Positions 16,797 to 39,423 are shown, numbered from the stretch's first letter. The stretch is DNA of 64,000 nucleotides from an uncultured Chloroflexia bacterium (GCA_963752475.1 CAVVYR010000008.1:32001-96000); one strand, 5' to 3'. A program made the numbers and translations. Notes: generated by a model not told the origin, from the letters alone.

Positions 16797-16857
16797 TTGA
16801 CTTCAGGGTACCGCTATGGGATGCTGCACAACGGTACTTATCATGAACAATCGTGCA
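16797..16857 (+). promoter_or_regulatory. Sigma70-like promoter plus tandem operator boxes overlapping the regulator start
   Basis: TTGACT-17-GATGCT with TG extension; boxes TGCACAACGGTACT (16825) and TGAACAATCGTGCA (16844). Confidence 0.6.
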
Positions 16858-17787
16858 GCACAAGCATCCCCTGTCCTGAGCCGCGTAGCGCGACTCTACT
16901 ACGAGCACGGGCTAACGCACGCGGACATCGCCAAGATCCTGGGCGTCTCGCGGGTGAAGGTCACGCGCATGCTCAACGAGGCGCGGCGGCTGGGCATCGT
17001 CGAGATCAAGGTCCACGGCGACACGTCCACGTTCTCCGAGCTCGAGTCCAGTCTGGTCACGCGCCTGGGCCTGCGCGATGCCTGGGTCGTGCCCGCCTCC
17101 TCGTCGGACGAGCGGCTGCGCGCCTCGCTCGGGACCGGGGGCGCCCATGCCTTGCGGGCCCTGCTGGCCCCGGGGATGGTCGTGGGCGTGAACCAGAGTC
17201 GGACCGTCTCTGCCATCCCCTTGGCGCTCGGCAGCGAGGAGCCGGTCGACGCACAGTTCGTGCCCGTGGCCGGCAGCGCCGGCGGCTACGGCCGGAGCAA
17301 GGCTCACGAGACCAGCGAAGCCCTCGCCCGTGCATTCGGTGGAAGCGCCTATCACCTGCCGGCGCCGACGCTGGCCTCGTCCGCCCGCGCGGCGGAGGTG
17401 CTCCTTGCGGAGAAGGAGATCGCTGACACGCTGTCGCTGGCCGCAAACGCCGACCTGCTGCTGGCGGGCATCGGAACGCTCGAGGATAACTACCTCATGC
17501 GCGGTGGTGAGATGCCTTCCGGGTCACACCGGTCACTCCGCTCCAGGGGGGCCGTCGGCGACATGTCGTTGCGCTTCTTCGACGTGGAAGGCAAGCCGGT
17601 CGATTCACCGATGGACGATCGCGTCATCTCGCTCACGCTCGAACAACACGTGCACATCCCGCTGCGGATGGCCATCGCCGGTGGCGATGCCAAGCGGGAG
17701 GCGCTGGTCGCAGCGGCGCACGGTGACCTGTACAACATCCTCGTCACCGACTTGGAGACAGCCACCTGGCTGATCGACAACACCTAG
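16843..17787 (+). CDS. SorC/LsrR/EryD family sugar-binding transcriptional regulator
   Basis: RVARLYYE.GLT..DIA..LGVSR.KVTRML.EAR..GIVEI; C-terminal sugar-binding domain (GAVGD, AGG..K, LVTD..TA). Confidence 0.93.
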   Translation: MNNRAAQASPVLSRVARLYYEHGLTHADIAKILGVSRVKVTRMLNEARRLGIVEIKVHGDTSTFSELESSLVTRLGLRDAWVVPASSSDERLRASLGTGGAHALRALLAPGMVVGVNQSRTVSAIPLALGSEEPVDAQFVPVAGSAGGYGRSKAHETSEALARAFGGSAYHLPAPTLASSARAAEVLLAEKEIADTLSLAANADLLLAGIGTLEDNYLMRGGEMPSGSHRSLRSRGAVGDMSLRFFDVEGKPVDSPMDDRVISLTLEQHVHIPLRMAIAGGDAKREALVAAAHGDLYNILVTDLETATWLIDNT

Positions 17788-17810
17788 CATCAATGGGGGA
17801 AGGCCACCAC

Positions 17811-18437
17811 ATGGAAGAGTACCGGGAGCTCATCGAGCAGCTGGCTGAGGCCGGCCGCGACGCGGTCGCGCGCGGGCTGACGCTCGCCTCAGGCGGCAAC
17901 CTCTCAGCGCGGATGCCGGGCTCGGACCGCTTCATCGTCACCGGCACCGGCACCTACCTCGACCGCCTCGACGACGATGACTTCAGCATCATGGACCTCG
18001 ACGGCAACGTACTCGGCGGGAGCGTGCCGCCATCGAGCGAGTGGAAGTTGCACCAGCGTACGTACCGCGTGCGCGAGGACGTCAACTCGATCATCCACCT
18101 GCACCCACAGTACTCGGTGCTGCTCGACGCGATGGGCCACGAGATCCGGCTCATCACCCTCGACCACGCCTACTACCTGCGCAACATCGAGCGCTGCGAC
18201 TACTACCCCAACGGTACCGACGAGCTGGGCGACACCGCGGCCGAGGCTGCCCGCGAGTGCAACGCCATCATCCTCGCCTACCACGGCTGCTCGACCCTGG
18301 GCGATACCGTGGCCATGGCCTATCGGCGGGCGATGAACCTCGAAGAGGCGGCCATGACCACGTATCGCTGCCTGACCCTGGGTAACACCGACCTCACCTT
18401 CCCCAAGGAGGAGTGGGCGCGGATCCACCACGCCTGA
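17811..18437 (+). CDS. Class II aldolase (FucA-type)
   Basis: GGNLSAR, PSSEWKLH (Glu as in FucA), HLHP, YHG. Confidence 0.9.
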   Translation: MEEYRELIEQLAEAGRDAVARGLTLASGGNLSARMPGSDRFIVTGTGTYLDRLDDDDFSIMDLDGNVLGGSVPPSSEWKLHQRTYRVREDVNSIIHLHPQYSVLLDAMGHEIRLITLDHAYYLRNIERCDYYPNGTDELGDTAAEAARECNAIILAYHGCSTLGDTVAMAYRRAMNLEEAAMTTYRCLTLGNTDLTFPKEEWARIHHA

Positions 18438-18447
18438 GGATCTGCCG

Positions 18448-20700
18448 GTGACCGACGAACGCATCGTCCGCGTCGGCTGCCCGGCTCACAATTGCGGCGG
18501 GCGTTGCCTGCTGGTGGCCCACGTCGCGGACGGCGTCATCACCCGCCTTGACGCCGACGATCGCCCCGATGACCTGGCCTCACCCCAGCTGCGCGCGTGT
18601 GTGCGCGGCCGAGCCTACCTGCGCCGGCAGTACCACCCCGACCGCCTGCTCCATCCCCTTCGTCGGGTCGGCACCCGCGGCGACGCACACTTCGAGCGGA
18701 TCGGCTGGGACGAGGCCCTGGACCTCGTGGCGTGTGAGATCCAGCGGGTGCGCGAGACCTACGGCAGCGAAGCGCTCTTCGTGCCCTACGGCACCGGCAG
18801 CTACAACCAGCTCAACGGTTCGCACCAGGCGCGGCGACTGATGAACCTCTCGGGCGGCTGTCTGGGCTTCTACAACGACTACTCCATGGCCGCGATCAAG
18901 GCGGCCACGCCCACGGTCTACGGCACCAACGTCACCGGCAACGAGCGACAGGACTGGCTCAACGCGCACTACATCCTGATGTGGGGCTGGAACCCCGCCG
19001 AGATGCGCGACGAGACCAACAGCGACTACTTCTTGCGCCTGGCGCGCGACCGCGGCGCCCGCGTCGTGTGCGTCGATCCACGCATGAGCTTGTCAGCCTC
19101 CCTGGCCGACGAGTGGGTACCGATCCGACCGGGCACCGACGCGGCCATGATGTCGGCCATGGCCTTCGTCATGATCGACGAGGAGCTCTACGACGCCGAG
19201 TTCGTGGGCACGCACTGCCTGGGTTTCGATGCCTCACAGATGCCAGCGGGGTTGGGAGGCGAGGAGAGCTACTCCGACTACATCCTGGGCACGCGCGACG
19301 ACACGCCCAAGAGCCCGCGCTGGGCCGAGGCCATCACCGGCGTGCCGGCCGTGACCATCGCCCGCATCGCCCGCGAGTACGCCACCACCAAACCGGGCGT
19401 GCTGTACCAGGGCTACGGCATGCAGCGCCGTGCCTACGGCGAGCAGGTCGTGCGGGCCGGCTGCGTGCTGGCAGCGATCACCGGCAACGTCGGCGTCAGC
19501 GGTGGCTGGGCCAGCGGCACCGCCAAGCCTGCTCCCCACGGTGGCTGCAAGGGCACGTACTTCCCGCGCGGTGACAACCCCGTGCAGGCGCAGATCCCCA
19601 CATTCCTCTGGACCGACGCCGTGACCCGAGGGATCGAGATGGGCCCGCAGGACGGACTGCGCGGTGCCGACCGACTAGCGACGAACATCAAGCTGCTCTA
19701 CTCGGTGGCCTCCAACGTCATGGGTGGCCAACACAGCGACCTCAATCGCACCGCCGAGATCCTGCGCGACGAGTCGCTGGTCGAGTTCATCGTGGTCCAG
19801 GACAACTTCCTGACCACGACCGCGTCCTTCGCCGACGTCGTGCTGCCTGCCTGCACCCAGTTCGAGACGTGGGGCTTCGAGGACGGCTGGAAGTTCACCG
19901 ACGACGTCATCCTCCAGCCCAAGCTGGTCGAACCCGCGGGCGAGTCTCGCAGTGACTTCGCCATCTGCGCCGGGATCGCGCAGCGCCTGGGCATCGGCGA
20001 GGCCTTCACCGAGGGACGCGATGAGCGCGAGTGGACCGAGTGGCTGCTCGATCGAGTGCGCGAGACCCGCTTCCCGGATCTGCCCGCGTTCGACGAGCTG
20101 CTCGAGCGGAACACGGGCACGTGGCCCCGGCCGATCCATGAGCCTGCCATCGCCTTCGCCGACTTCCGGGCCGACCCAGACGCCCATCCACTCGACACGC
20201 CGTCGGGCCGGATCGAGATCTTCTCCCGGCAGTTGCACGACCTCGGCCAGCCGCACGAAGTGCCGGCGCTGCCCAAGTACGTGCAGGAGTGGGAGAGCCC
20301 ACTGGGTCCCGAAGCCGAACGCTATCCACTCGCGGTCATCGGCCACCACTCGCTGCAGCGCGTCCACTCCACGCATGACAACAACGACTGGCTGGAGGAG
20401 GCCTTCCCCCAGCGAGCGGCCATCAACCGCATGGATGCCGAAGCACGCGGTATCGCCGACGGCGACAGCGTGCGCATCTGGAACGACCGTGGCGAGATCC
20501 GCCTCCCCTGCCGACTCACCGACCGGCTCATGCCCGGTGTCATCGACGTGCCCCAGGGCGCCTGGTGGAAGCCCGACGCCGATGGCATCGACGGTCGTGG
20601 CAACGTCAACGTCCTGTCCTCGCTGCGACCCACGCCGCTGGCCTTCGGCAATGCCCAGCACACGATCATGGCCGAGGTCGCCCCCATCGACCCCAGGCCA
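18448..20700 (+). CDS. dmsA: DmsA/YnfE-type molybdopterin oxidoreductase catalytic region, no Tat signal; apparently fused to the Fe-S unit (end approximate)
   Basis: CPAHNCGGRC...C Fe-S motif, DYS Mo-ligand region, PIRPGTDAA, TPSGRIEI, RVHST, QGAW. Confidence 0.88.
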
Positions 20701-21397
20701 CAGGACCGCAGCCGGAAGCACTCGCGGCTCGTTCTCGCCGCGGCCGTTCGAGGCCCCGGCGGAGCCCGTCTCGGCCGAGCCGCTGCTGTTCCACTTCGAC
20801 GCCTCGGCCTGCACCGGCTGCAAGGCCTGCCAGGTCGCATGCAAGGATCGCAACGGCCTGCCCGAGGGCCTCCTCTGGCGGCGCGTCTACGAGGTCACCG
20901 GCGGTTCGTGGCAGCGGCAGGGAGCGGCGTGGGAGCACGACGTCGGGGCGTACCACCTGTCGCTCTCGTGCAACCACTGCGAGAAGCCGGTGTGTGCCGA
21001 GGTCTGCCCAGCGGCGGCCATCGGCCGGCGACCAGACGGAGTCGTGCTCATCGATCCCGAGCGCTGCACCGGCTGCCGCTACTGCGCCTGGGCCTGCCCC
21101 TATGGCGCACTCCAGTTCGATGCGCTCGCGGGCGCGATGACGAAGTGCACGTTCTGCGTCGAGGACCTGGACGACGGTCGCCAGTCCGCCTGTGTCGCGG
21201 CCTGCCCCATGCGCGCGCTGGACGTGGGCACACGCGAGGAGCTGCTGGCCCGGCACCCCCAGAGCACGCCGGAGGCACTGGGCCTCCATCCCCTACCCGA
21301 CCCGGCCCTGACCGAACCGGGGTTGCTCATCACACCCCACCGCGAGGCCGCCCGTGTAGCCGATGTGGCGGTCGTGGCCAACTACGAGGAGACGTGA
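20701..21397 (+). CDS. dmsB: DmsB-type 4Fe-4S subunit/domain (no own start codon; frameshift in the linker to dmsA)
   Basis: CTGCKACQVACKD, CNHCEKPVC.EVCP, CTGCRYCAWACPYGA, KCTFC, CVAACPMRAL. Confidence 0.88.
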
Positions 21398-22302
21398 TGG
21401 GCGAACGCTCGCTGGTGCTCTTCACGCTCCTGACCCAGGCCGCCTGTGGGGCGCTCGTCGCGCTCGCGGGCATGCAGGTGCTCGGCGATGCCGATGTGCT
21501 CGGCATCGTGCCCTTCGTGGTCGTGGGCCTGCTGCTGCTCGTGGCCGCTATCACCTCCACGCTCCACCTGGGCTCGCCGGCCCACGCGCCCTATGCCATC
21601 AGCAACCTCCGAGCCTCGTGGCTCAGCCGCGAGATCCTGGGCCTGGGCCTGACCGGCGGCTTCGTCGCCCTCGGAGGGCTCCTGGCGCTCATCTCCGGCG
21701 GTGCCGACAGTGAGACCGCGCGCACGATCGTGACCGTGCTGGCGGCCGCGGCTGGCACCTTCCTGGTGCTGGCCATGGTGCGGCTCTACTCGGTACGCAC
21801 CATCCCCGAGTGGCACCCGACCCGGGTCGCGCTCGAGTTCACGGGAAGCACGCTGCGACTGGGCGCCCCTCTGGGGGTGGCGCTGGCTACGGTCGGAGTC
21901 TTGCCCGATGGCTCGATCGGTGTCGCGGCGGTCTGGCCGCTGCTGCTGCTCGCGGCCGGAATGATCCTGTGGTTCGCCGGCCGGAACTCGCGGCTGATCG
22001 GTGACGAGGCCACCCGCCGAGCCGGCGCGCTGCTGGTGCGCGGAGCACCAGAGGCGACCGTGATCGATCACGGTCGCATTCCGCTCTGGCTCGCAGTCGG
22101 CGTGCTCGTGGCCATGACCGGCACAGGCCTCCTGGGCGTGGGGCCGGCTTCGCTGGCCGGCCTGCTGGCACTCGCTGGCCTGCTGGCATGCGTCCCGCAC
22201 GAAGTCGCCGCCCGTGGCCACTTCTACGAGGCCGCGCCCGATCGTGGTCGCGACGCCAGGCGGCCTGCAGGCGCATCGCCTCGCCCAGCGGAAGGGCGCT
22301 GA
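21397..22302 (+). CDS. dmsC: DmsC-type membrane anchor
   Basis: TGATG coupling to dmsB; E.SLVLFTLL.Q, S.LHLG.P, N...SWLSREI, multiple TM helices. Confidence 0.85.
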   Translation: MGERSLVLFTLLTQAACGALVALAGMQVLGDADVLGIVPFVVVGLLLLVAAITSTLHLGSPAHAPYAISNLRASWLSREILGLGLTGGFVALGGLLALISGGADSETARTIVTVLAAAAGTFLVLAMVRLYSVRTIPEWHPTRVALEFTGSTLRLGAPLGVALATVGVLPDGSIGVAAVWPLLLLAAGMILWFAGRNSRLIGDEATRRAGALLVRGAPEATVIDHGRIPLWLAVGVLVAMTGTGLLGVGPASLAGLLALAGLLACVPHEVAARGHFYEAAPDRGRDARRPAGASPRPAEGR

Positions 22303-22303: not shown

Positions 22304-23318
22304 CTACAGGCCCAGGCGTTCACGCGCAGCTGGGATGGCATCGGGGTTGACGACGTTGACGACGGCACCTCCGATGAAGGCTTCCAGCGCCTCCCAGGCG
22401 ATACGCGCCTGGTGGTCGCCGACCTCGTGGGTGGCGCCCCCGAGATGGGGAATGGCCACGACGTTCGGCAGCTCCAGCAAAGGGTCATCGACCGGCAGTG
22501 GCTCCTGCATGTAGACGTCCAGGGCGGCCCCGGCGATACGACGCTCGCGCAGCGTCTCGACCAGCGCGTCGGGATCGACGAGCCGGGCGCGGGCGCTGTT
22601 GACGAGGAAGGCCGTGGGCTTCATCAGGCCCAGTTCGCGGGCGCCGATCATGCCCGTGGTGGCCGGTGTGACGGGGACGTGCAGCGAGACGATGTCCGAG
22701 TCGCGCAGCACGTCGTCAAGCGCCAGGAGCGTGGCATCCACGCCCTCGGCGACCGCGACCTCCACGAAGGGGTCGTGGGCGACCAGGCGCGCGCCGAAGC
22801 CGGCCAGGCGTTGCGCGGTGGCCAGACCGGTGGCACCAAGGCCCACGAGTCCGATCGTCTTCTCGCGCAGCTCAAAGCCCTGGTTGGCGAGGTAGCTGGG
22901 CAGCAGCCCGCGCTCGACCCAGAGCCCGTCGCGCACCGAGGTCAGCGCCGGCCAGGCGTTGCGCATGACCATGACCATCATCATCACGGTCAAGTCGCCG
23001 ACAGCGTCGGCGTTGCGCCCCGGCGTGTTGATGACGACGACGCCGTGCTCGGTGGCCGCGTCCACATCGACGTTGGCTGGAGCAGCTCGCGTGGCGATGA
23101 TGACCCCCAGCTCGGGCGACCGCTCGATGACCGAGCGCGTGACCTCGTCAGCCTCCGTGATGAGCACCTGCTGACCCGCGATGCGAGCCACCAACTCATC
23201 CTCCGAGGCCAGCGGCTGGGATCTCGTCCCACTCGACGTGGGTGAACTCGTAGGCCTCGGTAAGCCGCTGGATCCATCGTTCAGGCAGGCGTCCCGAGGC
23301 CAGGACGCGCGGCGGCAT
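22304..23318 (-). CDS. D-isomer-specific 2-hydroxyacid dehydrogenase (SerA-like); frameshift ~23220
   Basis: GLVGLGATG, SLHVP, NSAR, AALDVY..EP, PHLGGAT; ATG at 23318 overlaps upstream TGA. Confidence 0.88.
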
Positions 23319-23973
23319 CAGTGCGGGTCCTGTCCGTAGTTCTTGTGGTACCAGCCGAAGGCCCGGTCGAGCTCTTCCTGCGGCAGCTCGGTGACCTCGT
23401 GACCCATGGACTTGGCGTAGTAGATCGTGCGCGCGGCCTCTTCCATGTAGGTCGCGACCTTGACCGAGTCACTCGCCGTGGCGCCGAAGGTGAAGGGTCC
23501 GTGGCGGTTGACGAGGACGGCAAGACCGTCACCGCCGACGCGCACGATGGCCTCGCCGGTCTCGTCGTGGGCCGGCTTGACGTACTCCGTGCAGGGGATG
23601 GCGCGACCGACGATGTGGCTGAACGGCGTCAGCGCCGCGGGCAGGGCCTCCCCCATGAGGGCGAAGGCCGTGGAGTACGGCGAGTGGGTGTGGGTGATGC
23701 CGCCGATGTCGTCGCGGTGCTTGTAGATGTAGTTGTGGATGCCCAGGTCCACGGAGGGCTTGAGGTCGCCCTCGACCACGTGCCCTCGAGGTCGGTCACG
23801 ACCATGTTCTCAGGCGTGAGATCGCGGAAGCGCAGCCCGCTGGGCTTGATGATGACGTGGCCTTCCTCGCGCACGATGGCGCTGACGTTGCCGCCGGTCC
23901 ACACCACGAGCCCCTGGTCCGGGAGCTCCTTGTTCATGGCGCAGACTTCCTTGCGTAGCTCTGGGTACAGCAT
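23318..23973 (-). CDS. araD: L-ribulose-5-phosphate 4-epimerase-like class II aldolase/epimerase; frameshift ~23780
   Basis: GLVVWTGGNVS, IKPSG, KPSVDLGIH (Asp as in AraD), HTHSPY, HGPF, YGQ end. Confidence 0.8.
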
Positions 23974-24003: not shown

Positions 24004-25053
24004 TCAGTCCTTGGCTGGATCCGCCGCGGTCAGCGACGGGATGATCACGCTCTTGATGGACTCACCGGCCTTGACGATGAGGTCGATGCCCTCCATCGCG
24101 CCATCGAACCCGAAGCGGTGCGTGATGAGCGCCTTGGCATCGACGCGACCGTTGGCGATGTACTGAAGCACGGCGTTGGTCTCGGCCTTGGTCGAGGAGT
24201 AGCCGTTGTTGATGGTGATGCCGGAGAAGTAGAGGTGGTTGGGGTCCACCGTCGCTCGCTCGTCGGGGTGCGGCGGAGCGTTCACGTGGAGCGTGCCGCC
24301 CTTGCCCACCAGAGCCAGTGCGGCCTCCCAGGCCCTAGCTGACGGCGCGGTCGAGACGACTGCGTCGGCGAGGCGCCCGTCGTTGACGGCCTTGAGCGCT
24401 TCGGCGGCCTCCACGCGCTCGGGGTTGATGGCGTGCGTGGCGCCCATCTCCAGGGCACGTTCCAGACGCCAGTCGCTGAAGTCGAGGGCTACGATGCTGG
24501 CGTATGGGAAGAGCCGGGCCAGCTGCACGAAGGAGAGGCCCATGAAGCCCACGCCCTGGACGGCGATGGTGTCGCCGCTGATCGACGTCGATCCTCTGCA
24601 GACCATAGAGGCAGTCCGACATCGGCTCGATGATGCAAGCCTCCTCGAAGGAGACGTGATCGGGCAGCTTCAGCATGACCGGCACGTTCTCAGTCGGCAC
24701 TCGGAAGTAATCGGCGAACCCGCCGGGATGGATGTTCGTCTTGGAGTAGGAGCCACAGTACGTGGCCGCACCGCGCTGGCAGTCTCGGCAGTCGCCGCAC
24801 TGCACGTGGTGGTGCACGAAGACGCGATCACCGACCGCCAGCCGCTGACGTCGTCGCCAACCTCCACGATCGTGCCCGCTGGTTCGTGGCCCAGGATCTT
24901 GGGCGCGCGGGGCTTGAGATACCACTCCATGGCCTCACCGCCGCAGAGCCCGCAGGCTTCGGTCTTGACGAGCACCTCACCAGGACCGATGGAGGGGACC
25001 GGCCGCTCCTCGACTCGGATGTCCGTGTTGCTGTAGTAGACGGCGCAACGCAT
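24004..25053 (-). CDS. Zn-dependent alcohol/polyol dehydrogenase; frameshifts ~24840 and ~24590
   Basis: CGLCG, GHEPAG, CGDCRDC..G...C structural Zn, IEP, G.GFMG, LITHRF. Confidence 0.88.
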
Positions 25054-25106
25054 GGTCGGCCCTGCGCGTGTCAGCCCTCCATCGATCGGGGCCACGCCGA
25101 CCCGCA

Positions 25107-30902: not shown

Positions 30903-32453
30903 ATGTCGACCGCTCCCGACGCACTCACGCTGCGCGGTATCAGCAAGTCGTTCCCGGGCGTACGCGCCCTCGATGATGTCGACTTCTCGGTCGCTGCAGG
31001 CGAGGTCCACGGTCTCGTCGGTGAGAACGGCGCGGGCAAGTCGACGCTCATCAAGATCATCGCCGGTGTGTACCAGCGCGATGCCGGCGAGATGCTGGTC
31101 CGCGGCAAGGCCTGCGGGAACCTCACTCCTCACCAGGTCGAGGAGCTGGGCATCCAGTTCATCCACCAGGAGCAGAACCTGGTTTCCGAGTTCACCGTGG
31201 CCCAGGCCGTGTTCATGGGCCAGGAGAAGAAGCTGGGCAAGTGGGTCCCGCTGGTCGACAACCGGCGCATGGAGCAGGAAGCCAGCGCCCTGATCAGCGA
31301 GATGCTAGGTGTCGACCTGCCGGGCAATCGCCTCGTGCGCGACCTCTCGGTGGCCGAGCGCCAGCTGGTTCAGATCGCGAAGGCCCTCCTGACCAAGCCC
31401 AGCGTGGTCGCCTTCGACGAGCCCACCGCTCCCCTCGCCCGTCGCGAGGTCGAGGCGCTCTTCCGCATGATCGACAAGCTGAGAGAGCAGGGCCTGGCCA
31501 TCATCTATATCTCGCACTACCTCCAGGAGATCACGCAGATATGTGATCGCGTGACGGTCTTGCGCAACGGCAAGCTGGCCGGGACGCTGCCGCTACCCGA
31601 GACCTCCATCGAGGACATCGTGACAACCATGGTCGGTCGCGAGATCGACGAGATGTACCCGCCGCGCAAGGTCGAGGTCGGCGCTCCCCGCCTCCATGTC
31701 GAGAACCTCACGCTCCACGGCGCCTTCGAGGACATCTCCATCGACGTCGGCCGAGGTGAGGTCATCGGCGTGACCGGCCTGCTTGGCTCGGGCATCCATC
31801 CCCTGGCCGAGACGCTCTACGGCCTGCGTCGGCCGGATTCGGGAACCATTCGGCTCGACGGGACCGAGCTGGGAGCGCTCACTGCCTCCAAGGCGGCCGA
31901 GCTTGGCTTTGGCATGGTGCCCAAGGATCGTCGCTGGGAAGGCGTGGTCGTATCCATGTCGGTAGCGGACAACGTCAACCTCTCGAGCCTTGAGAAGTCG
32001 GCTCGTGGCGGCCTCATCAGCAACCGTGTGTACCGCGAGCGCGCCACCAAGATGATCGACGCGCTGAGCATCAAGACCCCGACACCTGATACGGCCGTGC
32101 GCTATCTCAGCGGCGGCAACCAGCAGAAGACCGTCATCGCCCGCTGGCTCTCGGCTGACACTCAGGTATTCGTGCTGGAGGAGCCGGGCCTGGGCGTCGA
32201 CGTCGGGGCCAAGATCGAGATCTACACGCTCATCAATGAGATGGCTGCCGCCGGTTCGGCGGTCATCATCGTCGGCTCCGACATCCCCGAGCTGCTGGGC
32301 GTCTGCGACCGCGTACTGGTGATGTATCGCGGCGAGATCGCCAAGGAGCTCATGTCGGCGGAGACGACACCTGACACCGTGCTCTACTGGTCGACCAGCG
32401 GAGGATCGAAGACGGACGCAGCGGGCACCGACACGGCGCAGTTGGCCTCATGA
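30903..32453 (+). CDS. Monosaccharide ABC transporter ATP-binding protein (RbsA-like)
   Basis: GENGAGKST, DEPT, LSGGNQQK, two ABC domains. Confidence 0.95.
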   Translation: MSTAPDALTLRGISKSFPGVRALDDVDFSVAAGEVHGLVGENGAGKSTLIKIIAGVYQRDAGEMLVRGKACGNLTPHQVEELGIQFIHQEQNLVSEFTVAQAVFMGQEKKLGKWVPLVDNRRMEQEASALISEMLGVDLPGNRLVRDLSVAERQLVQIAKALLTKPSVVAFDEPTAPLARREVEALFRMIDKLREQGLAIIYISHYLQEITQICDRVTVLRNGKLAGTLPLPETSIEDIVTTMVGREIDEMYPPRKVEVGAPRLHVENLTLHGAFEDISIDVGRGEVIGVTGLLGSGIHPLAETLYGLRRPDSGTIRLDGTELGALTASKAAELGFGMVPKDRRWEGVVVSMSVADNVNLSSLEKSARGGLISNRVYRERATKMIDALSIKTPTPDTAVRYLSGGNQQKTVIARWLSADTQVFVLEEPGLGVDVGAKIEIYTLINEMAAAGSAVIIVGSDIPELLGVCDRVLVMYRGEIAKELMSAETTPDTVLYWSTSGGSKTDAAGTDTAQLAS

Positions 32454-33454
32454 GTGCGATCTCCAACGCCTTCACCGGCGACACGCCCTGGGCACGCGCT
32501 CTCGACTTCCTGCTCCGCTACGGCGGGCTGCTGATCATCGCAGCCGTCTTCATCTACTTCACCATCATGTCGCCGGTCTTCCTGACCGGCGACAACCTGA
32601 TGGCCATCCTGAAGCAGTCGGCGGTGCTGGCCGTCGCGGCGTTCGGTGCTTCCACGGTCATGATCGGCGGCGGCACCCACATCATCAAGGGTGGTATCGA
32701 CCTCTCGGTCGGCGCCCAGCTGGGCCTGACCACGGCTGTCTACGCGCTCATGCTGACCAACGGCTGGAACCCGTTCGTGGCGATCGCCGTCGGTACCGCC
32801 GCGGCCCTGCTCATCGGACTGGGCAACGGCATCGCGGTGGCGATGGTCGGTATCGTCCCGCTGCTGGCCACGCTGGCCATGCAGAACGTGGTCAACGGCA
32901 CCGAGCTGCTCATCACCAACAACGTCAACGTGCCGGTGTCGTCGGACTTCATCGACTGGCTGGCCAATGGCGAGATCCTGTTCCTGCCGGTACCGGTGGT
33001 CATCCTCATCTTCGCCTTCGTCGGCTTCTACCTCTTCATCGAGCGGACACCCCTCGGAGTCCAGATCCGGGCCACCGGCGGCAACGCCGACGCGGCCATC
33101 CAGGCCGGCATCGCCATCCGGCGCAACGTCATCCTGACCTACGTGCTGGCCAGCCTGGCCGTGGCCATCGCTGCCATCATCATCGTCGGGCGCGTCTCCG
33201 GTAGCGTCCGAGGCATCGGTCCGTTGATGCTCCTGGACATCCTGCTGGCAGCGTATGTGAGCGCCATGTTCTCGCGCCGCTGGGTCATCAACATCCCCGG
33301 CACCCTCGTCGGTGCCATCTTCGTCGGCGCCCTCACGAACGGCTTCACGCTCGTGAACATCGCGACCTATTGGGTCCTCGCAGTGAAGGGTGTGCTCATC
33401 CTCATCGTGGTGGCAGCCACGTCGCTACAGCGGCAGCGGGAGACCAGGCGATGA
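32450..33454 (+). CDS. Monosaccharide ABC transporter permease
   Basis: GIDLSVG, G.N..AA..AGI, multiple TM helices. Confidence 0.93.
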   Translation: MSAISNAFTGDTPWARALDFLLRYGGLLIIAAVFIYFTIMSPVFLTGDNLMAILKQSAVLAVAAFGASTVMIGGGTHIIKGGIDLSVGAQLGLTTAVYALMLTNGWNPFVAIAVGTAAALLIGLGNGIAVAMVGIVPLLATLAMQNVVNGTELLITNNVNVPVSSDFIDWLANGEILFLPVPVVILIFAFVGFYLFIERTPLGVQIRATGGNADAAIQAGIAIRRNVILTYVLASLAVAIAAIIIVGRVSGSVRGIGPLMLLDILLAAYVSAMFSRRWVINIPGTLVGAIFVGALTNGFTLVNIATYWVLAVKGVLILIVVAATSLQRQRETRR

Positions 33455-34446
33455 CTGCCGGCGTCAGCGTCCAGTCGTCGGACACCCGCTCGGGTGCGGC
33501 CCGAACCGTCGCCTTCCTGCGGCGGTATGCCGTCTGGATCGCCTTCTTCCTCGTCGTCGCCTTCTTCGCGGTCTTCGCGGAACGCTTCGCGACCACCAAC
33601 AACGCCCTCAATATCGCCAGCCAGAGCGTCATCCTGATGTTCGTGGCCCTGGCCATGACGCTCGTGGTCACCGCCGGCGGCATCGATCTCTCCGTCGGCG
33701 TCTCCTTCGACTTCGCCGCGCTGGCGGGCGTGAGCCTGCTGGTCGCCGACGTGCCCTGGCCGCTGGCCATCGCCGTGGGGCTCGGATTCGGCACCCTCGT
33801 CGGCGTCTTCAACGCCGGCATGATCGTGAAGGTTGGGATCAGCCCGTTCCTCGCGACCCTGGCCATGCTCTTCATCGGCGAGAGCGTGCAGCGCATCTAC
33901 ACCACCGGTGGTGCGCCGATCTACGTGGCCGTGATGGAGCCCGCCTACCGCTACATCGGCGGCGGCAAGATCATCGACAACGTGCCGTTCTCGCTGGTCC
34001 TGGCACTGATCCTCATCGTGGTCATGTTCGTGCTCATCGAGCGCATGGTCCACGGCCGCCGATGGCGCGCCATCGGCGCTCAGCCTGAGGCGGCGCGCAT
34101 CGCCGGCATCATGGTCCACCGCTACCAGGCCGCGACGTACATCATCGGAGCCTTCATCTGCTCCGCTGCCGGCATCATCCTCAGCTCATCGTTGAGCTCC
34201 TACGTCCCGGTCTCGGGTGGTGCATACCTGATGGACGCCATCGGCGCGACCTTCATCGGCACGGCCATCGACGAGGAGGGCCGACCGAACGTGCTGGGCA
34301 CGGTCCTGGGCGTGCTCTTCCTGGGCGTCCTCGCCAACGGCTTGAACCTCATCGGCATCAACTTCTACTGGCAGGCTGTGGCCAAGGGCGTGCTCATCTT
34401 CGGGGCCCTTGCTCTCGGCGTCCTCAACCGCCGCCGACAGTCCTGA
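33451..34446 (+). CDS. Monosaccharide ABC transporter permease
   Basis: GGIDLSVG, AIG..PEAARIAGI, DAIGATFIG. Confidence 0.93.
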   Translation: MTAGVSVQSSDTRSGAARTVAFLRRYAVWIAFFLVVAFFAVFAERFATTNNALNIASQSVILMFVALAMTLVVTAGGIDLSVGVSFDFAALAGVSLLVADVPWPLAIAVGLGFGTLVGVFNAGMIVKVGISPFLATLAMLFIGESVQRIYTTGGAPIYVAVMEPAYRYIGGGKIIDNVPFSLVLALILIVVMFVLIERMVHGRRWRAIGAQPEAARIAGIMVHRYQAATYIIGAFICSAAGIILSSSLSSYVPVSGGAYLMDAIGATFIGTAIDEEGRPNVLGTVLGVLFLGVLANGLNLIGINFYWQAVAKGVLIFGALALGVLNRRRQS

Positions 34447-34447: not shown

Positions 34448-35459
34448 ATGTCCACCGGTCTCCGACCTCCCCGGGGGCTGCCGAGTTCCGGTCGCCTTGC
34501 CGCATGGCTGAAGCGGCCGGAACTCGTTCTCATCGTGGTGCTGCTGCTCGCGGGTGCCTTACTGCGGCCGGTCGCCGCACTCTGGTCCGAACCCATCGCG
34601 GTGGCGCCCCAGTACGGACGCTCGGCCATGACGCTTTGGGAGGTGCTGCCGGAGCCGGGCTACCTGGTGCCGGTCAGTCGACGCACCCCCGAAGTAGAGG
34701 TCTCACCCGAGAACGCGGTACGCCAGTTGCTGGCTGGCCCGGTCGCCGGCCCCGACCTCGAGGCTCCCTTCGCAGACGGGACCGAGCTGTTGGCGTTCGA
34801 GCTGGATGAGGAGCACGCTCGAGTGGCACTGTCGCCGACAGCACTCGAGACCGACGACTTCCAGCGCGCGATCGACGCGCTGGTGCTGACACTGACCGAG
34901 TTCCCTGAGGTCACGGTCGGTCTCTGTCGCGGTCGACCAGACCCACGCTGACGACCTCGAGCGCCCGACCGTCAACCCTGAGTCCGAGACCGCCGCCGAG
35001 GGCGGTACCTTGCTGTACTTCGCCTACCAGGGCGAGGATCGCTACCTAGTGCCGGTCACGCGCGAGTCCAAGTCCGATGGACCGGGGCCGGCGGCGGTCA
35101 TGGACGAGTTCCTGACCGGCCCGCAGGCCGGCAGCGGCCTCGAGCCGGTCGTGCCTTCGGACGTGCGCGTGCGAGAGGTGCGGTTCGAGAACGGCCTGGC
35201 TACGGTCGACTTCAACGCCAACCTCGTCTATGCCTACCGCCTCTCGAAGGCCAACTCGCTGTTCGTGCGCCGGGCGGTGATGGCCACGCTCACCGATCTG
35301 CCCGAGGTCGATGCCGGACTCATCGAGATCGACGGCTCGCGCCTGCTGCTATACACCTGCGTCAACGTGACCCAGGAGTTCCCACAGGCACGCCCGTGGG
35401 CCATCAACGACGAGTTCTACCTTGAGACCCTGCCCCTCCCGGAGGCCACGGCCGCATGA
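34448..35459 (+). CDS. Membrane-anchored protein with two GerMN domains; frameshift ~34925
   Basis: YLVPVSR...LLAGP...LTLTEFPEV and LYF....YLVPVTR...LTGP...ATVDF...TLTDLPEV. Confidence 0.75.
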
Positions 35460-36620
35460 CCGCCGGAACGCCCGAGGTCGCCTACTTCGACAACGCGGCC
35501 ACCAGCTGGCCCAAGCCGCCAGGCGTCGCAGCCGCCATACAGCGGTACCTGCGATTCCGTCGGCGGCAGCCCGGGGCGTGCGGGACACCGCCTGGCGGTC
35601 GAGGCCGGTCGCGCGGTCTACGAGGCGCGCGAGGCCCTCGCCGAGCTCGTCGGGGGGAGCGACCCGGAGTCGGTCATCCTGCTCAAGAACGCCACTGAGG
35701 CCTTGAACCTGGCCATCCTTGGGACCATCGACCGAGGCGACCGGGTGCTCGTCAGCGCCCTCGAGCACAACTCTGTCATGCGGCCGCTGCGCCACCTGGA
35801 GGCCACGCTCGAGGTCACGGTCGAGGTCGTCAAGTGTGGACCGGACGGCACCATCGACCCGGCCTGCCTGGCGCGTGCGCTCAAGGAACCGGCCCGCCTG
35901 GTGGCCGTCAACCACGCCTCCAACGTGACCGGCGCCCTGGCGCCGATCGAGCGGGTCTCGGACATCGCGCATGCCGCCGGCGCCAGCCTCCTCGTCGATG
36001 CCGCGCAGACCGCCGGGGCCTACCCCATCGACGTGGCCGCCATGGGCATCGACTACCTCGCGTTCACCGGGCACAAGAGCCTCTTCGGGCCTCAGGGCAC
36101 CGGCGGTCTGGTCATCGAGTGCCGAGCCGCCGCGCCCGCTGATGTTCGGTGGAACCGGCAGCAACTCCGAGAAGGAACTGCCAGCCCGAGCTCTACCCCG
36201 ACCGGCTGGAGAGCGGGACGCTCAACGGCGTCGGGCTTCGCGGGCCTGGCCGCCGGTCTCGAGTACATCGACGAGCAGTCGGTGGAGGCCATCGGTCGCC
36301 GTGCTCGCGCCCGCCTCGGCCGACTGCTCGAGGGCCTGGCGTCGACGAACGGGGTGCGGGTCCATGGCCCGGCTGATCCGGAGCGACAGATCGGCGTCGT
36401 CTCGATCACCTTCGACGGGTCGCTCGCCGGCAGAGGCCGGCTTACTGCTGGACGACGACTTCGGGGTACTGACCCGCGTAGGGCTCCACTGCTCGCCGGC
36501 AGCCCACCGCACGCATCGGCACGTTCCCCGAGGGCACCGTCCGCCTGAGCATCAGCGACATGACCACGGATCGAGCAGGTCGAGCAGGCCATCGCGGCCG
36601 TCCGTGAGCTGGCCCGCTGA
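35456..36620 (+). CDS. Aminotransferase class V, cysteine desulfurase/selenocysteine lyase family; about six frameshifts
   Basis: YFDNAATSWPKP, SPGRAGH, NATEALN, EHNSV, NHASNVTG, DAAQ, TGHK, ESGT.N, RVGLHCSP, GTVRLS across shifting frames. Confidence 0.85.
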
Positions 36621-36639: not shown

Positions 36640-36888
36640 ATGACGCCACCTTCGAAGGCCGTCGTCACGTTCGAGGGCACGATGCAGGCGCTTCGAGCCG
36701 AGAAGCGGGTCAAGGCCGCCGGGGTCAGCTGCCGCCTCGTGCCCACACCTCGTGAGCTGAGCTCCACCTGCGCACTGGCCCTCTCGTTCGCGCGGGCAGA
36801 CCGCGGTCGTCGTGGGAGCCACGCTCGTGGCTGACGGCTGGCGCGTGGAGGCCGCCTACATGTACCCGCCTGGCGGAGGTGCCCCTGA
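36640..36888 (+). CDS. DUF3343 domain protein; frameshift ~36800
   Basis: VVTF..T.QALRAEK......CRLVPTPRELSSTC.LAL. Confidence 0.8.
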
Positions 36889-36891
36889 GAC

Positions 36892-37365
36892 ATGGGCGCC
36901 ATGAGGGAGCGCTCGCTCCAGCCCTGGATGGCCGGCGTGATCATCGGCGTGGTGGCCGTGCTGGCCGGCACCATCGGCGCTGTCAACCCGCCCGACGCGT
37001 ACGGCTTCTGCACCACCTGCCACGGTCGCGACCTCATCCTCGGGCTGGTTCGACCGCTCAGCGGCGCCACCTTCGACCTGCCCACGCTCTGGCCGGTACT
37101 GACCGTGGTGGGCGTGGTCGGCGGTGCCTGGCTCGCTCGGCGCCTCGCGGCCGAGACCGCGCGACCCGACCGGCTGGACACGATCACCATCGTGACCCGC
37201 GTGATCCAGGGCTTCGTGGTCATGAGCTTCGCGCTGCTGGCGATGGGCTGCCCCATCCGCCTCACGATCAGCGCCGCCAACCTCGCGGTCCCGGCCTTCA
37301 TCGGCCTCGCCGGCGTGGCCCTCGGTATCTGGCTCGGCGTCCAGTACCTCAAGGTGCGAGCCTGA
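36892..37365 (+). CDS. YedE/YeeE sulfur/selenium transporter, N-terminal half
   Basis: NPP...GFCTTCHGRD, GCP.R, TM helices. Confidence 0.78.
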   Translation: MGAMRERSLQPWMAGVIIGVVAVLAGTIGAVNPPDAYGFCTTCHGRDLILGLVRPLSGATFDLPTLWPVLTVVGVVGGAWLARRLAAETARPDRLDTITIVTRVIQGFVVMSFALLAMGCPIRLTISAANLAVPAFIGLAGVALGIWLGVQYLKVRA

Positions 37366-37865
37366 TGGTGGAGCTCGGACTGGTCACGCTGATCGTCGGC
37401 CTCATCGCCGGCTTCGTAGGACAGCGCTCCCGCTTCTGCAGCGTGGGCGGCTTCCGGGACTTCCTCATCGCACGCGATACGACGCTGCTGCTGGGCGTGG
37501 TCGCGCTCTTCGCGGCCGCGTGGCTGACCTTTCCGCTCGTCGAGGCCTACGAGACGCTGACGGCACCGACCGTCGTAGAGCAGAGCGAGGGCCTCGGTGG
37601 TCTGGACCCGCTGGCGGTCGAGGACGACACCGATCTGCTCTCGGACGAGGGCGGCTGGCCGGGCATGACGCTGGCAGCGGTCATCTTCGTGGGTGGCATC
37701 GGCGTCGGCGCGGTTTCCACGGTCGCCGGTGGCTGCCCGTTCCGCGAGCACGTGCTGGCCGGCCAGGGTTCGCGCCAGGCCGTCTTCTACCTGATCGGTT
37801 TCTACATCGCAGCGCTGGCCTTCGGCTTCTGGAGCCCGACGGTCCTACGCTTCATCCTCGGCTAG
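37365..37865 (+). CDS. YedE/YeeE sulfur/selenium transporter, C-terminal half
   Basis: TGATG coupling; QRSRFCSVGGFRD, GGCPFR..LAG.G. Confidence 0.82.
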   Translation: MVELGLVTLIVGLIAGFVGQRSRFCSVGGFRDFLIARDTTLLLGVVALFAAAWLTFPLVEAYETLTAPTVVEQSEGLGGLDPLAVEDDTDLLSDEGGWPGMTLAAVIFVGGIGVGAVSTVAGGCPFREHVLAGQGSRQAVFYLIGFYIAALAFGFWSPTVLRFILG

Positions 37866-37899
37866 GTGGCCGAGCTGGCTAGGCATGGGGAGGATTGAC

Positions 37900-39423
37900 G
37901 TGAGCACCCGACTGCTCGGGGTCGACGTCGGTACATCGCTGGTGAAGGCGGTCATCTTCGACGCCCACGGGGCGGAGCTCGGCCTGGGGTCGAGGAGCGT
38001 AGCTGTGGCAGCTCCTCACCCCGGCTGGGCAGAACAGGACATGGATACCGTTTGGGAGGCAGCGGCCGAGGCTATTCGGGCCGCGCTCTACGAGGCTGGT
38101 CCGGGTGAGATCGCGGCGGTGGCGGTCGCTGGTCAGGGCGACGGCGCCTGGATGATCGACGGGGACGGCCGACCCGTCCGTCCCGCCCCGCTCTGGAACG
38201 ACGGGCGTGCCGCCGAGACGATCGAGCGCTGGGAGCGCGAAGGGGCGCTGCGTGACCTCTACCGCCGAGGCGGGACCGTGCTCTGGACCGGGTCGCAGGC
38301 CGCACTGCTGTCGTGGTTCGTCGAGCACGAGTCAGCAGCCCTCGAGCGGACGACAGCCGTCTTCTGCAGCAAGGACTGGATCAGGTATCGCCTGACCGGC
38401 ACGATCGGCACGGACGAGACGGACGGCTCCATCCCCTTCATGGATCTGGCGGGGCGCAGCGTCAGCATCGAGCAGGCAGCCATCGTCGGCCTGGAGGGAT
38501 CGATCGAGTTCGTACCCGAGGTCAGTCGCTCGACCGACGTGGTCGGAGCGGTGACCCGAGAGGCCGCCGCCGCGACGGGGCTGACTGAGGGCACACCCGT
38601 CGTCGCTGGCGTGCTCGACGTGGCGGCGAATGCCATCGGAGTCGGAGCCATCGACGGCGGACAGGCCATGGTCATCCTCGGCACGACCGCGCTCGCCGCC
38701 GTCATCCTCGACGAACCGCGCTTCGAGCCGGCCGACGTGGGCGCCAGCGTCTGCCATGCGCCCGAGGGGCGCTGGATGCGCGCCCTTGGTTCGATGGCCG
38801 GCACGCCCAACCTGGACTGGTACCTCGAGGCCATGGGTGGCGGCATCATCGCGGACGCCGAGGCCATGGGCCGTGACCGCTTCGCGGTGCTGGAGGACGA
38901 GATCGCGGCCTCGCCGGTCGGAGCGAGTGGCGTGATCTATCACCCGTACCTGCGCGGCGAGCGCGTGCCCTTCATCGCACCCGATGCCCGCGGCGCGTTC
39001 TTCGGCCTGGGCATGGAGACCACCAGGGGCGATCTCGCACGAGCCGTGTCCGAGGGCGTGGCTTTCGCTATTCGCCACATGTTCGAAGCCGTCGGGGCGC
39101 CGGTCTCGCAGGTGCGGCTCTGCGGTGGCGGATCGAGCAGCCAGACCTGGTCGCAGATCCTCGCCGACGTCACCGGTGCGCGCATGATCGAGGCCGCCGG
39201 CAGCCAGTTCGGCGCCCTCGGCGCGGCCATCGTAGCCGGGATCGGCGTGGGGCTCTATCAGGACTACGAGACGGCTGTCGAGCGTTGTGTGCGGGTGCAG
39301 CGCACGCACGAGCCGGACCCTGAGCGGCAGGCGCGATACGACGAGCGTTTCGCCCTCTATACCGACCTCATCGATGCGGTCCGACCGCACTGGGGGCGCC
39401 TCACCGGCGCGAGCCCACCGTAG
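37900..39423 (+). CDS. FGGY carbohydrate kinase (erythritol/L-xylulose kinase-like)
   Basis: GVDVGTS..KA, GQGDGAW, WNDGR, LGTT, PYL.GER.PF, GGG. Confidence 0.92.
   Translation: MSTRLLGVDVGTSLVKAVIFDAHGAELGLGSRSVAVAAPHPGWAEQDMDTVWEAAAEAIRAALYEAGPGEIAAVAVAGQGDGAWMIDGDGRPVRPAPLWNDGRAAETIERWEREGALRDLYRRGGTVLWTGSQAALLSWFVEHESAALERTTAVFCSKDWIRYRLTGTIGTDETDGSIPFMDLAGRSVSIEQAAIVGLEGSIEFVPEVSRSTDVVGAVTREAAAATGLTEGTPVVAGVLDVAANAIGVGAIDGGQAMVILGTTALAAVILDEPRFEPADVGASVCHAPEGRWMRALGSMAGTPNLDWYLEAMGGGIIADAEAMGRDRFAVLEDEIAASPVGASGVIYHPYLRGERVPFIAPDARGAFFGLGMETTRGDLARAVSEGVAFAIRHMFEAVGAPVSQVRLCGGGSSSQTWSQILADVTGARMIEAAGSQFGALGAAIVAGIGVGLYQDYETAVERCVRVQRTHEPDPERQARYDERFALYTDLIDAVRPHWGRLTGASPP

Follow-up and report, generated by a model that had tools for sequence, protein, structure and literature searches.

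Why should a locus for the breakdown of a sugar hold two molybdoenzymes and, in addition, a set of genes for the handling of sulfur or selenium? This question is raised by a 22.6-kb locus (positions 16797–39423) of an uncultured Chloroflexota bacterium, which lies in a 64-kb stretch of DNA; the window in the following means this full stretch. Codon usage and the G+C content by codon position served for gene calling, Pfam and NCBIfam for the naming. The G+C content is 65–71% across the whole window and, hence, many open reading frames (ORFs) are spurious. The locus features three arms. The left arm on the plus strand carries a SorC-type regulator (sorC), a class II aldolase, DmsA, DmsB, and DmsC; the minus-strand arm carries a transketolase split into an N and a C subunit (tktN and tktC), a Zn-dehydrogenase (adh), an AraD-type epimerase (araD), and a D-2-hydroxyacid dehydrogenase; and the right arm, again on the plus strand, carries a BisC-like reductase (bisC) followed by a run of ten genes: the binding protein, the ATPase, and the two permeases of an ATP-binding cassette (ABC) importer, a GerMN protein, a class-V desulfurase, a DUF3343 protein, the two halves of a YedE transporter, and an FGGY kinase.

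The molybdoenzymes and the sulfur/selenium module are truly embedded in this sugar locus. An initial annotation of the window had listed the gene families, and all of them were found here by Pfam and NCBIfam; its statements on the junctions were borne out as well. It had put dmsABC 10 bp after the aldolase, and 10 nt are read in the sequence between the aldolase stop and the GTG of dmsA; the dmsB stop in turn overlaps the dmsC ATG (TGATG). It had described 1-bp and overlapping junctions around the GerMN, desulfurase, DUF3343, and yedE genes between permease and kinase, and the sequence agrees: a single nucleotide separates the permease stop from the GerMN ATG, GerMN and desulfurase overlap by ATGA, DUF3343 and the first yedE half by 13 nt, and the two yedE halves by 1 nt, with a gap of 19 nt from the second half to the kinase. 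It had also let the BisC-like gene and the transketolase share an operator-bearing intergenic region, and a 180-nt divergent region with the operator O2 is indeed common to both. On the minus strand, tktN, tktC, adh, araD, and the 2-hydroxyacid dehydrogenase gene abut or overlap (tktN and tktC by 13 nt), the sole exception being 30 nt before araD. After correction, the most likely gene starts are ATG 16843 for sorC, ATG 27041 for tktN—near which the tktN match of the relative L003 also begins—and GTG 27222 for bisC.

Relatives were collected in a genome scan by alignment of binding-protein homologues, which gave 80 loci with 10-kb flanks: four on contigs of Chloroflexota metagenome-assembled genomes (MAGs; L001–L004) and 76 others. 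In all three close relatives, L001–L003, every gene visible in the flanks is kept in order. The view opens at the 3' half of dmsA; the contig of L001 stops at the ATPase, and L002 and L003 can be followed as far as the kinase. Most of their proteins are 75–95% identical to those of the window. The distant L004, with a protein identity of 42–62%, keeps the importer, GerMN, desulfurase, DUF3343, both YedE halves, the FGGY kinase, and the 2-hydroxyacid dehydrogenase. In L002, the kinase is followed (19718–21008) by a homologue of the aminopeptidase P gene that lies at 9774–11064 in the window, 28 kb away across the locus. This different flank therefore places the end of the locus at the kinase and indicates that it moved as a block. 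Equal "longest contig" values link matches of the binding protein and the desulfurase (27660, 99879, and 23865) and of the binding protein and BisC (22561 and 4526), which suggests three and two further contigs that pair the importer with the desulfurase and BisC, respectively. Two peculiarities of the relatives can be appreciated in addition. In L003 (7367–12623, versus 27171–32453 in the window), BisC, binding protein, and ATPase are only 53%, 60%, and 45% identical to the window, whereas its transketolase, AraD, and dehydrogenase are 90–96% identical; either a different allele seems to have replaced this central segment, or the segment has diverged into one. In L004 (8921–10906), a single frame of 661 residues holds two Peripla_BP_4 domains, both 57–58% identical to the binding protein of the window, and is a tandem duplication or fusion.

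A shared operator ties the three arms together. The intergenic alignment of the window with L001–L003 features invariant blocks at two sites, each with two 13-nt units of the form TGAACAnnnGTAC that are 19 nt apart from start to start: O2, where the block is longer than 30 nt, and O3 upstream of the binding-protein gene, whose units score 18.5 and 23.8 bits. A weight matrix was made from the 16 units of the O2 and O3 sites of the window and L001–L003, and both strands of the 64 kb were scanned with it. The scan returned the four training units of the window plus one new pair at 16825/16844 (O1), also with a spacing of 19 nt; its units reach 14.3 and 17.3 bits by this matrix built without them, and the next best single unit in the 64 kb reaches 10.9 bits. 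Pairs whose units each reach 14 bits were absent from all 300 first-order Markov simulations, as compared with three in the window. Since O1 was not used in the matrix, it is independent evidence that sorC, the aldolase, dmsAB, and dmsC are under the same control as bisC and the operons of transketolase and importer. The units headed by the operator are sorC–aldolase–dmsAB–dmsC, the divergent tktN–tktC–adh–araD–2-hydroxyacid dehydrogenase and bisC, as well as the importer operon of ten genes, which opens with the binding protein and closes with the FGGY kinase. Because the operator stands at three control regions and the simulations yield no such pair, the locus reads as one regulon, and it is very probable that this regulon is conserved.

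The candidate regulator is encoded directly behind O1. The Sugar-bind (PF04198) match of SorC spans positions 7–256 of the 257 of the profile and is preceded by N-terminal helix-turn-helix (HTH) matches, which is the architecture of the SorC/DeoR family; the NCBIfam models of DeoR and LsrR match far below their cut-offs. The SorC protein, a regulator of the sugar-phosphate-sensing type, would bind the proposed operator. The regulons of DeoR of Bacillus, LsrR, and CggR resemble the one described here in the combination of Sugar-bind and HTH, in a regulator that heads its operon, and in an operator of two tandem units—the operator of CggR reportedly consists of direct repeats—but the present regulon differs from them in holding molybdoenzymes and sulfur/selenium genes. 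The Lsr (autoinducer-2) system was considered as an identity for the locus and rejected: the matches to LsrR, LsrK, and LsrA are all far below the cut-offs, and LsrF and LsrG are absent.

Both molybdenum enzymes are, as judged by their sequences, S- or N-oxide reductases with cytoplasmic active sites. DmsA scores 830.9 bits with TIGR02166, the model of the A subunit of dimethyl sulfoxide (DMSO)/selenate reductases, and is above the cut-off of 777.7; the specific models DmsA, YnfE, and YnfF give 629, 624, and 614 bits and fall short of their cut-offs of 1600, 1675, and 1650. DmsB (Fer4_11, 78 bits) reaches 208 bits with TIGR02951, just below the cut-off of 214.1, and DmsB and DmsC both follow DmsA in this order. 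The motif NDYS of DmsA aligns with GDYS of the solved structure 1e60 (precursor residue 189 by alignment count); this serine, which the BisC-like enzyme keeps as well, corresponds to the Mo ligand of the Rhodobacter DMSO reductase. DmsA begins with MTDERIVRVGCPAHNCGGRC directly after the aldolase, and no leader for twin-arginine translocation (Tat) occurs in any frame, only the 10-nt gap lying in front of it. The absence of such a leader also follows from the alignment of residue 3 with position 41 of the TIGR02166 profile. In L001 (840–1130), L002 (600–880), and L003 (650–1010), a single frame runs from DmsA into DmsB through a linker of ~35–40 residues (20560–20860 in the window); therefore, the natural form is a fusion, and the window carries a +1 shift in the linker. 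The fused, leaderless DmsAB is predicted to face the cytoplasm. Leaderless forms and C-terminal extensions of ~200 residues or A–B fusions occur among the 150 best cluster representatives (e.g., P0364, P0428, and P0405), so these traits are uncommon but not unique. Compared with DmsABC and YnfEFGH of the E. coli type, the enzyme shares the TIGR02166 match, the aligned serine, and a four-cluster DmsB-type subunit followed by a DmsC anchor; it differs in the absent Tat leader, by which the active site should face the cytoplasm, in the single DmsA–DmsB polypeptide of L001–L003, and in genes that are preceded by a sugar aldolase and, at the head of the unit, by a SorC-type operator. An ORF of 1284 residues at 18448–22302 was also considered as a fusion of DmsA and DmsC and was rejected: DmsB occupies a second reading frame there, across which the long one merely happens to be open, and the true fusion is that of DmsA and DmsB.

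The second enzyme is of the BisC/DorA type, with TIGR00509 as its best family. It aligns with the Rhodobacter DMSO reductase 1eu1 from residue 11 to residue 11 at 644 bits, has no signal peptide, and keeps Tyr114, Trp116, and Ser147 (SYGW and the serine of TYS), which presumably have active-site roles in DorA-type enzymes. The likeness to BisC, DorA, and TorA thus extends over family, structure match, and active site; the gene differs from these in its position divergent from a transketolase operon with a common conserved operator, and in its TIGR00509 score below the cut-off. A BisC copy 100% identical to that of the window is present on an independent 3-kb contig (P0122). Outside the Chloroflexota, a BisC-family gene lies inside the homologous importer operon in three of the 76 loci—in L061 and L065, it follows the permease by 47 nt, and in L067, it comes behind the PfkB kinase—and 5 kb upstream of it in a fourth (L048). 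The copies of L061 and L067 are also below the TIGR00509 cut-off (947 and 932 bits). These proteobacterial copies are 44–49% identical to that of the window, while BisC homologues from unrelated contexts reach ~60%; the lower identity of the importer-linked copies therefore points to separate recruitments and not to one dedicated subfamily. A sugar-linked BisC subfamily common to Chloroflexota and Proteobacteria is accordingly not supported by these identities. In L067, a Rhodobacterales MAG, a gene of the SBP56 family follows BisC (15425–19074), with 683 bits to Pfam and 145 bits to the MtoX model at a cut-off of 650.

What is imported is best judged from the binding protein. Its nearest solved relatives are 3l49, annotated as "ribose," with 305 bits, and 4wt7 with 294 bits over 295 residues; the latter is Avi_5165 of Agrobacterium vitis with allitol bound. 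Because of this nearness to an allitol-bound protein, the substrate is probably an ordinary polyol. The sugar enzymes are resolved less specifically. No NCBIfam model is reached at cut-off by the aldolase, whose best solved relative is 6btd (90 bits), and the FGGY kinase has 2itm as its best solved relative and stays below the cut-off of the XylB model (332 versus 380 bits). The two araD pieces match profile positions 2–61 and 56–182 (NF005123, 153 and 77 bits) and form a single frame in L001–L003, and adjacent genes for the N and the Pyr/C subunit make the transketolase a split one. Taken together, importer, kinase, epimerase, and aldolase point to a route from polyol to ketose to the pentose-phosphate pool for which no heteroatom is required.

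The 76 other loci, mostly of Alpha- and Betaproteobacteria, encode binding proteins 45–52% identical to that of the window at the head of a conserved cluster: a GntR/UTRA regulator, short-chain dehydrogenase/reductase (SDR) enzymes, a class II aldolase, the ABC importer, a PfkB kinase, and often an aldehyde dehydrogenase, a setting that speaks for a polyol as the substrate of the importer family. The Chloroflexota locus shares the Avi_5165-type importer with these clusters but carries FGGY kinase, Zn-dehydrogenase, AraD, and split transketolase instead of PfkB, SDR, and aldehyde dehydrogenase. Transketolase, FGGY kinase, GerMN, and YedE occur in none of the 76 within the 10-kb flanks. Two further features of the proteobacterial loci may be mentioned. 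A trio of an AMP-binding enzyme, an SCP-x-type thiolase-like protein, and a DUF35 (ChsH2-type) protein stands beside the polyol cluster in 40–41 of the 80 loci (L006, L034, L048, and others), which hints that an acid product of the cluster is activated to its coenzyme A ester. In L058, a Stappiaceae MAG, homologues of the SorC-type regulator, the 2-hydroxyacid dehydrogenase, and the class II aldolase (30–37% identity) lie directly upstream of the homologous importer (7027–9619); none of the other loci from outside the Chloroflexota matches SorC.

The sulfur/selenium module starts with the GerMN protein, which is probably located outside the membrane; in L004, it is a single ORF of 333 residues with a hydrophobic N terminus. 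The desulfurase is probably of the TIGR01977 type: at a cut-off of 377, the largest in-frame piece of the window scores 257.5 bits and the intact L004 orthologue (380 residues) 465.9; the SclA model gives 383 bits in this test at a cut-off of 525. The DUF3343 piece of the window reads PRELSSTCALALSF, with the Cys present that is described as conserved in PMC5322559. Both YedE halves reach Pfam Sulf_transp (38 and 33 bits at a cut-off of 27). A frame-broken yedE was rejected as an explanation of the two genes, as all four Chloroflexota loci that extend to yedE (the window, L002, L003, and L004) have it as two half-size genes. Split transporters of the YeeE/YedE family are known as YedE1E2 (PMC10812762) and PmpAB (PMC11582611), in both cases two adjacent half-size membrane genes that are the N- and C-terminal halves of YedE, and YedE1E2 is reported to import zero-valent sulfur. 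The halves described here are likened to them by gene form; they are longer (157–173 residues versus ~130 for PmpA and PmpB), and their neighbors are desulfurase and DUF3343 rather than persulfide dioxygenase or rhodanese genes. YedE, TIGR01977, and DUF3343 together are a predicted selenium-trafficking set, as outlined by Lin et al. 2015 (PMC5322559) and Haft and Self 2008 (PMC2276186). All three are adjacent on the same strand in the locus; the differences are that GerMN precedes them, that YedE is split and sub-cut-off, and that the set lies between an ABC permease and a sugar kinase.

The account preferred here couples polyol catabolism to the cytoplasmic reduction of S- or N-oxides as an electron sink; as a whole, it is put forward tentatively, as a possibility not quite reaching an even chance. 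The CUT2 importer would take up a sugar alcohol, the Zn-dehydrogenase would oxidize it to the ketose, and the FGGY kinase would phosphorylate the ketose, after which the AraD-type epimerase and the split transketolase could pass the product to the pentose-phosphate pool. Class II aldolase and 2-hydroxyacid dehydrogenase would serve a branch by way of a ketose-1-phosphate or an aldehyde. The SorC-type repressor would release all units upon the appearance of a phosphorylated intermediate of the imported polyol. A polyol would give one more NADH than the matching sugar, and a quinol-oxidizing DmsC with the docked DmsAB fusion, plus the soluble BisC-like enzyme, could dump the electrons on small membrane-permeant S- or N-oxides. 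Anaerobic growth of E. coli on glycerol needs DMSO, trimethylamine N-oxide (TMAO), or fumarate, and the role as an electron sink is proposed because of this parallel. The GerMN exoprotein, the split YedE channel, the TIGR01977 desulfurase or selenocysteine lyase, and the DUF3343 carrier would import and mobilize selenium or sulfane sulfur. The role that asks least of them, and the weakest step of the account, would be to provide the reductases induced along with them with Fe–S clusters and dithiolene cofactors.

Several points weigh against this account. The position of the sulfur/selenium genes between permease and kinase is left unexplained by it, and so is the module of L004, which has no molybdenum gene in view: only unrelated genes occupy the 10 kb upstream, and the view ends 0.9 kb past the kinase. 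A molybdenum gene within 10 kb is lacking in 72 of the 76 non-Chloroflexota importer loci, so that most users of such polyols manage without a molybdoenzyme, and the operator does not occur in L004 or in any of these 76 loci. Among the assignments, the BisC-like enzyme stays below the TIGR00509 cut-off (897.8 versus 1017.55 bits), and the YedE halves stay far below the cut-off of 200 of the seleno_YedE model TIGR04112 (48.5 and 66.4 bits in the window, 41.3 and 66.6 in L004). Finally, seven genes carry 11 frame breaks while in the rest of the window most Pfam matches are whole, and the copy in this genome may be non-functional.

The main inference of the initial annotation, a sugar regulon with embedded molybdenum, sulfur, and selenium genes that may serve a sugar bearing sulfur, selenium, or a sulfoxide, is upheld in its first half by the junctions, the operator, and all three close relatives, and finds no support in its second half, against which the relatives of the binding protein, 3l49 and 4wt7, speak. 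Its other option, that the oxidation of a sugar is coupled to the reduction of an oxide, agrees better with the evidence. The search for co-occurrence in gene neighborhoods that it had suggested came out mixed: positive in L001–L003 and, for the sulfur/selenium module, in L004, and, among the loci outside the Chloroflexota, mostly negative for molybdenum genes and negative throughout for GerMN and YedE.

The frame breaks, which the initial annotation had not noted, give rise to the best surviving alternative, namely that the locus is a decaying remnant in this genome with seven pseudogenes and a dead pathway. It is less likely than the electron-sink account but a serious possibility, and it is compatible with any reading for the intact relatives. 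Judged against the relatives, the breaks fall within 22.6 kb: one each in the dmsA–dmsB linker, the 2-hydroxyacid dehydrogenase, araD, GerMN, and DUF3343, two in adh, and four in the desulfurase. Those of the linker, the 2-hydroxyacid dehydrogenase, araD, and adh are read through in L001–L003, that of GerMN in L003 and L004 but not in L002, and those of desulfurase and DUF3343 in L004; comparison with L001 and L002 shows that the frame of the 2-hydroxyacid dehydrogenase changes after its N terminus. Decay is suggested by this number of breaks, by domains that are mostly whole outside the locus, by the position of the breaks away from long homopolymers, and by the deposited gene call of the desulfurase, which is a truncated piece of 267 residues (P0242); as an intact copy from the same organism, only this piece of the window itself was returned, the next match being 69% identical. 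Against decay, every frame segment still encodes a well-conserved protein, and since the broken araD is 94% identical to that of L003, any decay would be very recent. The source contig of 638 kb suggests a long-read assembly, in which indel errors are common. The four same-direction shifts of the desulfurase within 1.1 kb and the compensating pair of adh, indels 257 nt apart compared with L001 and L002, look more like local consensus error, and L002 and L003 have frame changes of their own. The breaks are therefore ascribed to local consensus error or very recent decay, with a clear leaning toward error. For the in-frame stop of adh at 24670–24672, a selenocysteine codon was considered; the surrounding 250 nt read as dehydrogenase in another frame, hence two frameshifts are present and not a selenocysteine.

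That the neighbors have no functional link is improbable. The gene order would then be inherited in one lineage, with an operator that governs the sugar genes and with the others carried along or served by promoters of their own. L001–L003 are close relatives, and hence their shared order is weak evidence; the scarcity of molybdenum genes and the absence of GerMN and YedE in the 76 other loci fit this explanation; and a consensus scan for promoters and terminators in this DNA of 68% G+C—no promoters and one terminator-like site, fewer than in shuffles—is uninformative and gave no usable signals either way. It is opposed by the gene arrangement itself: dmsA follows the aldolase within 10 nt behind the operator-bearing sorC promoter, the sulfur/selenium genes overlap their neighbors within the importer–kinase operon, and bisC starts in a 180-nt control region with an invariant operator. 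In addition, the distant L004 keeps the sulfur/selenium insertion, and BisC was separately recruited beside the same importer family in Alphaproteobacteria.

More doubtful still is a dedicated catabolism of an imported methylsulfinyl-, methylthio-, or seleno-pentose or -pentitol by cytoplasmic reduction, phosphorylation, and an aldolase split as in the dihydroxyacetone phosphate (DHAP) shunt. The BisC-like enzyme and DmsAB might each take one sulfoxide stereoisomer, and lyase, DUF3343, and YedE would recover sulfur or selenium. In its fullest form—two stereo-complementary cytoplasmic molybdoenzymes that deoxygenate an oxidized organochalcogen polyol or sugar, a dehydrogenase/kinase/aldolase/transketolase core that dismantles it, and a GerMN–lyase–DUF3343–YedE module that salvages or exports sulfur or selenium—the proposal is rated slightly lower again. 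Both reductases face the cytoplasm, where the imported substrate would be, and the module is translationally coupled to importer and kinase. The BisC-family genes inside the importer operons of L061, L065, and L067, in the last case followed by the SBP56/methanethiol-oxidase family gene, itself well sub-cut-off, also speak for such a route; BisC is nearby in only four of the 76 other loci, however, in copies less like that of the window than context-free homologues are. The best solved relative of the aldolase, 6btd, is listed in a paper on 5-deoxyribose salvage, but the match of 90 bits is weak. Of the DHAP shunt for the salvage of 5-deoxyribose or methylthioribose, Pfam and NCBIfam recover only the aldolase in the locus: the kinase is of the FGGY type, no isomerase family is present, and no genes of the MtnK or MtnA type were seen. 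An ordinary polyol or sugar is what the closest solved binding proteins suggest, and the TIGR01977 family is predicted in PMC2276186 to use cysteine or selenocysteine, rather than sugars, as substrates.

The weakest explanation, a selenium (or sulfur) acquisition unit merely gated by a sugar regulator, in which DmsAB and the BisC-like enzyme reduce selenate, selenite, or selenoxides YedE, lyase, and DUF3343 handle the chalcogen, and the availability of sugar controls a process costly in energy, is very unlikely: the predicted selenium-trafficking set is present, the YedE halves favor seleno_YedE over the thiosulfate model TsuA (48 and 66 versus 29 and 26 bits), and the DmsA family model covers the selenate reductases YnfE and YnfF too, but the YnfE and YnfF models and TIGR04112 are all missed by the wide margins given above, a scan of ORFs of the window and of L001–L004 gave no SelD (AIRS domain), YedF, SelA, SelB, or YbbB, and Lin et al. 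found no selenium-specific branch of DUF3343 (PMC5322559).

All gene families of the locus are known; what is new is their union under one sugar-type operator and, in addition, the leaderless DmsA–DmsB fusion. Full-text literature on SorC, DMSO reductase, and transketolase or on Chloroflexota, DMSO reductase, selenium, and sugar alcohols yielded no description of such a regulon, subscription literature and supplements being outside this scope, and full-text literature on methylthioribose, sulfoxide, and molybdopterin and on split-transketolase pathways yielded nothing relevant. If polyol catabolism is indeed coupled to oxide reduction, the locus would be a case in which a repressor links, in a substrate-specific way, a reduced carbon source with the terminal reductases that belong to it, by way of an inward-facing DmsAB. 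A chalcogen-bearing sugar, if true, would mean a new catabolic pathway and the first biochemical context for the YedE/TIGR01977/DUF3343 set, whose function is so far predicted. Under either reading, the locus is compact and lends itself to testing, with a single regulator and operator, one binding protein, and a pair of reductases.

Table 1. Genes and control elements of the locus, with positions counted from the first nucleotide of the window
Feature	Position	Strand	Remarks
TTGACT promoter-like box (16797–16802) and operator O1	16797–16856	+	O1 units 16825–16837 and 16844–16856, over the sorC start codon
sorC, SorC/DeoR-type regulator	16843–17787	+	Pfam Sugar-bind 194 bits and HTH; ATG 16843 preferred over 16816
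Class II (FucA-type) aldolase	17793–18437	+	Pfam Aldolase_II 147 bits, profile 1–181 of 183
dmsA–dmsB, Tat-less molybdenum-bis(pyranopterin guanine dinucleotide) (Mo-bisPGD) catalytic subunit and four-cluster ferredoxin subunit	18448–21397	+	+1 shift in linker at ~20690–20720
dmsC, membrane anchor	21397–22302	+	Pfam DmsC (PF04976) 61.8 bits, cut-off 22.3
D-2-hydroxyacid dehydrogenase	22304–23318	-	Pfam 2-Hacid_dh_C 178 bits; frame break ~23212–23225
araD, AraD-type L-ribulose-5-phosphate 4-epimerase family	23318–23973	-	1 nt missing at ~23781
adh, Zn-dependent polyol-type dehydrogenase	24004–25107	-	ADH_N and ADH_zinc_N on separate pieces; breaks ~24584 and ~24841
tktC, transketolase C-terminal subunit	25107–26114	-	Transket_pyr and Transketolase_C; 88–96% identical in L001–L003
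tktN, transketolase N-terminal subunit, thiamine diphosphate (ThDP)-binding	26102–27041	-	Transketolase_N; ATG 27041 and ribosome-binding site read
Operator O2	27118–27149	-	In the 180-nt divergent tktN/bisC region; units 17.9 and 17.3 bits
bisC, BisC/DorA-type soluble Mo-bisPGD S/N-oxide reductase	27222–29534	+	No signal peptide; TIGR00509 best family
CTTGACAC box and operator O3	29579–29653	+	Upstream of the binding-protein gene; units 29621–29633 and 29640–29652
CUT2 ABC importer	29816–34446	+	Binding protein 29816–30823, ATPase 30903–32453, permeases 32450–33454 and ~33451–34446; Pfam, NCBIfam
GerMN protein, two Germane domains	34448–35459	+	Germane matches in two frames; break ~34912–34956
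Class-V pyridoxal phosphate (PLP)-dependent cysteine desulfurase/selenocysteine lyase (TIGR01977 type)	35456–36620	+	Pfam and NCBIfam matches on the central piece; four +1 breaks at ~35540, 36425, 36505, and 36560
DUF3343 (Se_S_carrier) small protein	36640–36904	+	PF11823 53.4 bits, cut-off 25; break ~36790
YedE-family half-transporter, N-terminal half	36892–37365	+	Sulf_transp 38 bits; TIGR04112 profile 4–134, 48.5 bits
YedE-family half-transporter, C-terminal half	37365–37865	+	Sulf_transp 33 bits; TIGR04112 profile 178–241, 66.4 bits
FGGY kinase, xylulokinase-like	37885–39423	+	FGGY_N and FGGY_C; right end of locus

Outside the locus, three further regions of the window deserve mention. On the left side, an ORF at 7116–9356 features an SGNH domain of the kind normally fused to an acyltransferase-3 (AT3) domain, with no AT3 upstream in any frame scanned; it overlaps an opposite-strand DUF1684 ORF and may be truncated or frame-broken. 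Farther to the right, at 45504–47276, a xylose-isomerase-like TIM barrel (AP_endonuc_2) and, behind it, an IclR regulator complete with HTH and C-domain share a single stop-to-stop frame; two genes may have fused here, a stop may have been lost, or the frame may be disturbed in some other way. The right end of the locus is followed by a TetR-like gene (39431–39970) and then by an indolepyruvate/phenylpyruvate decarboxylase (40712–42340; TIGR03394, 844 bits at a cut-off of 554.5).

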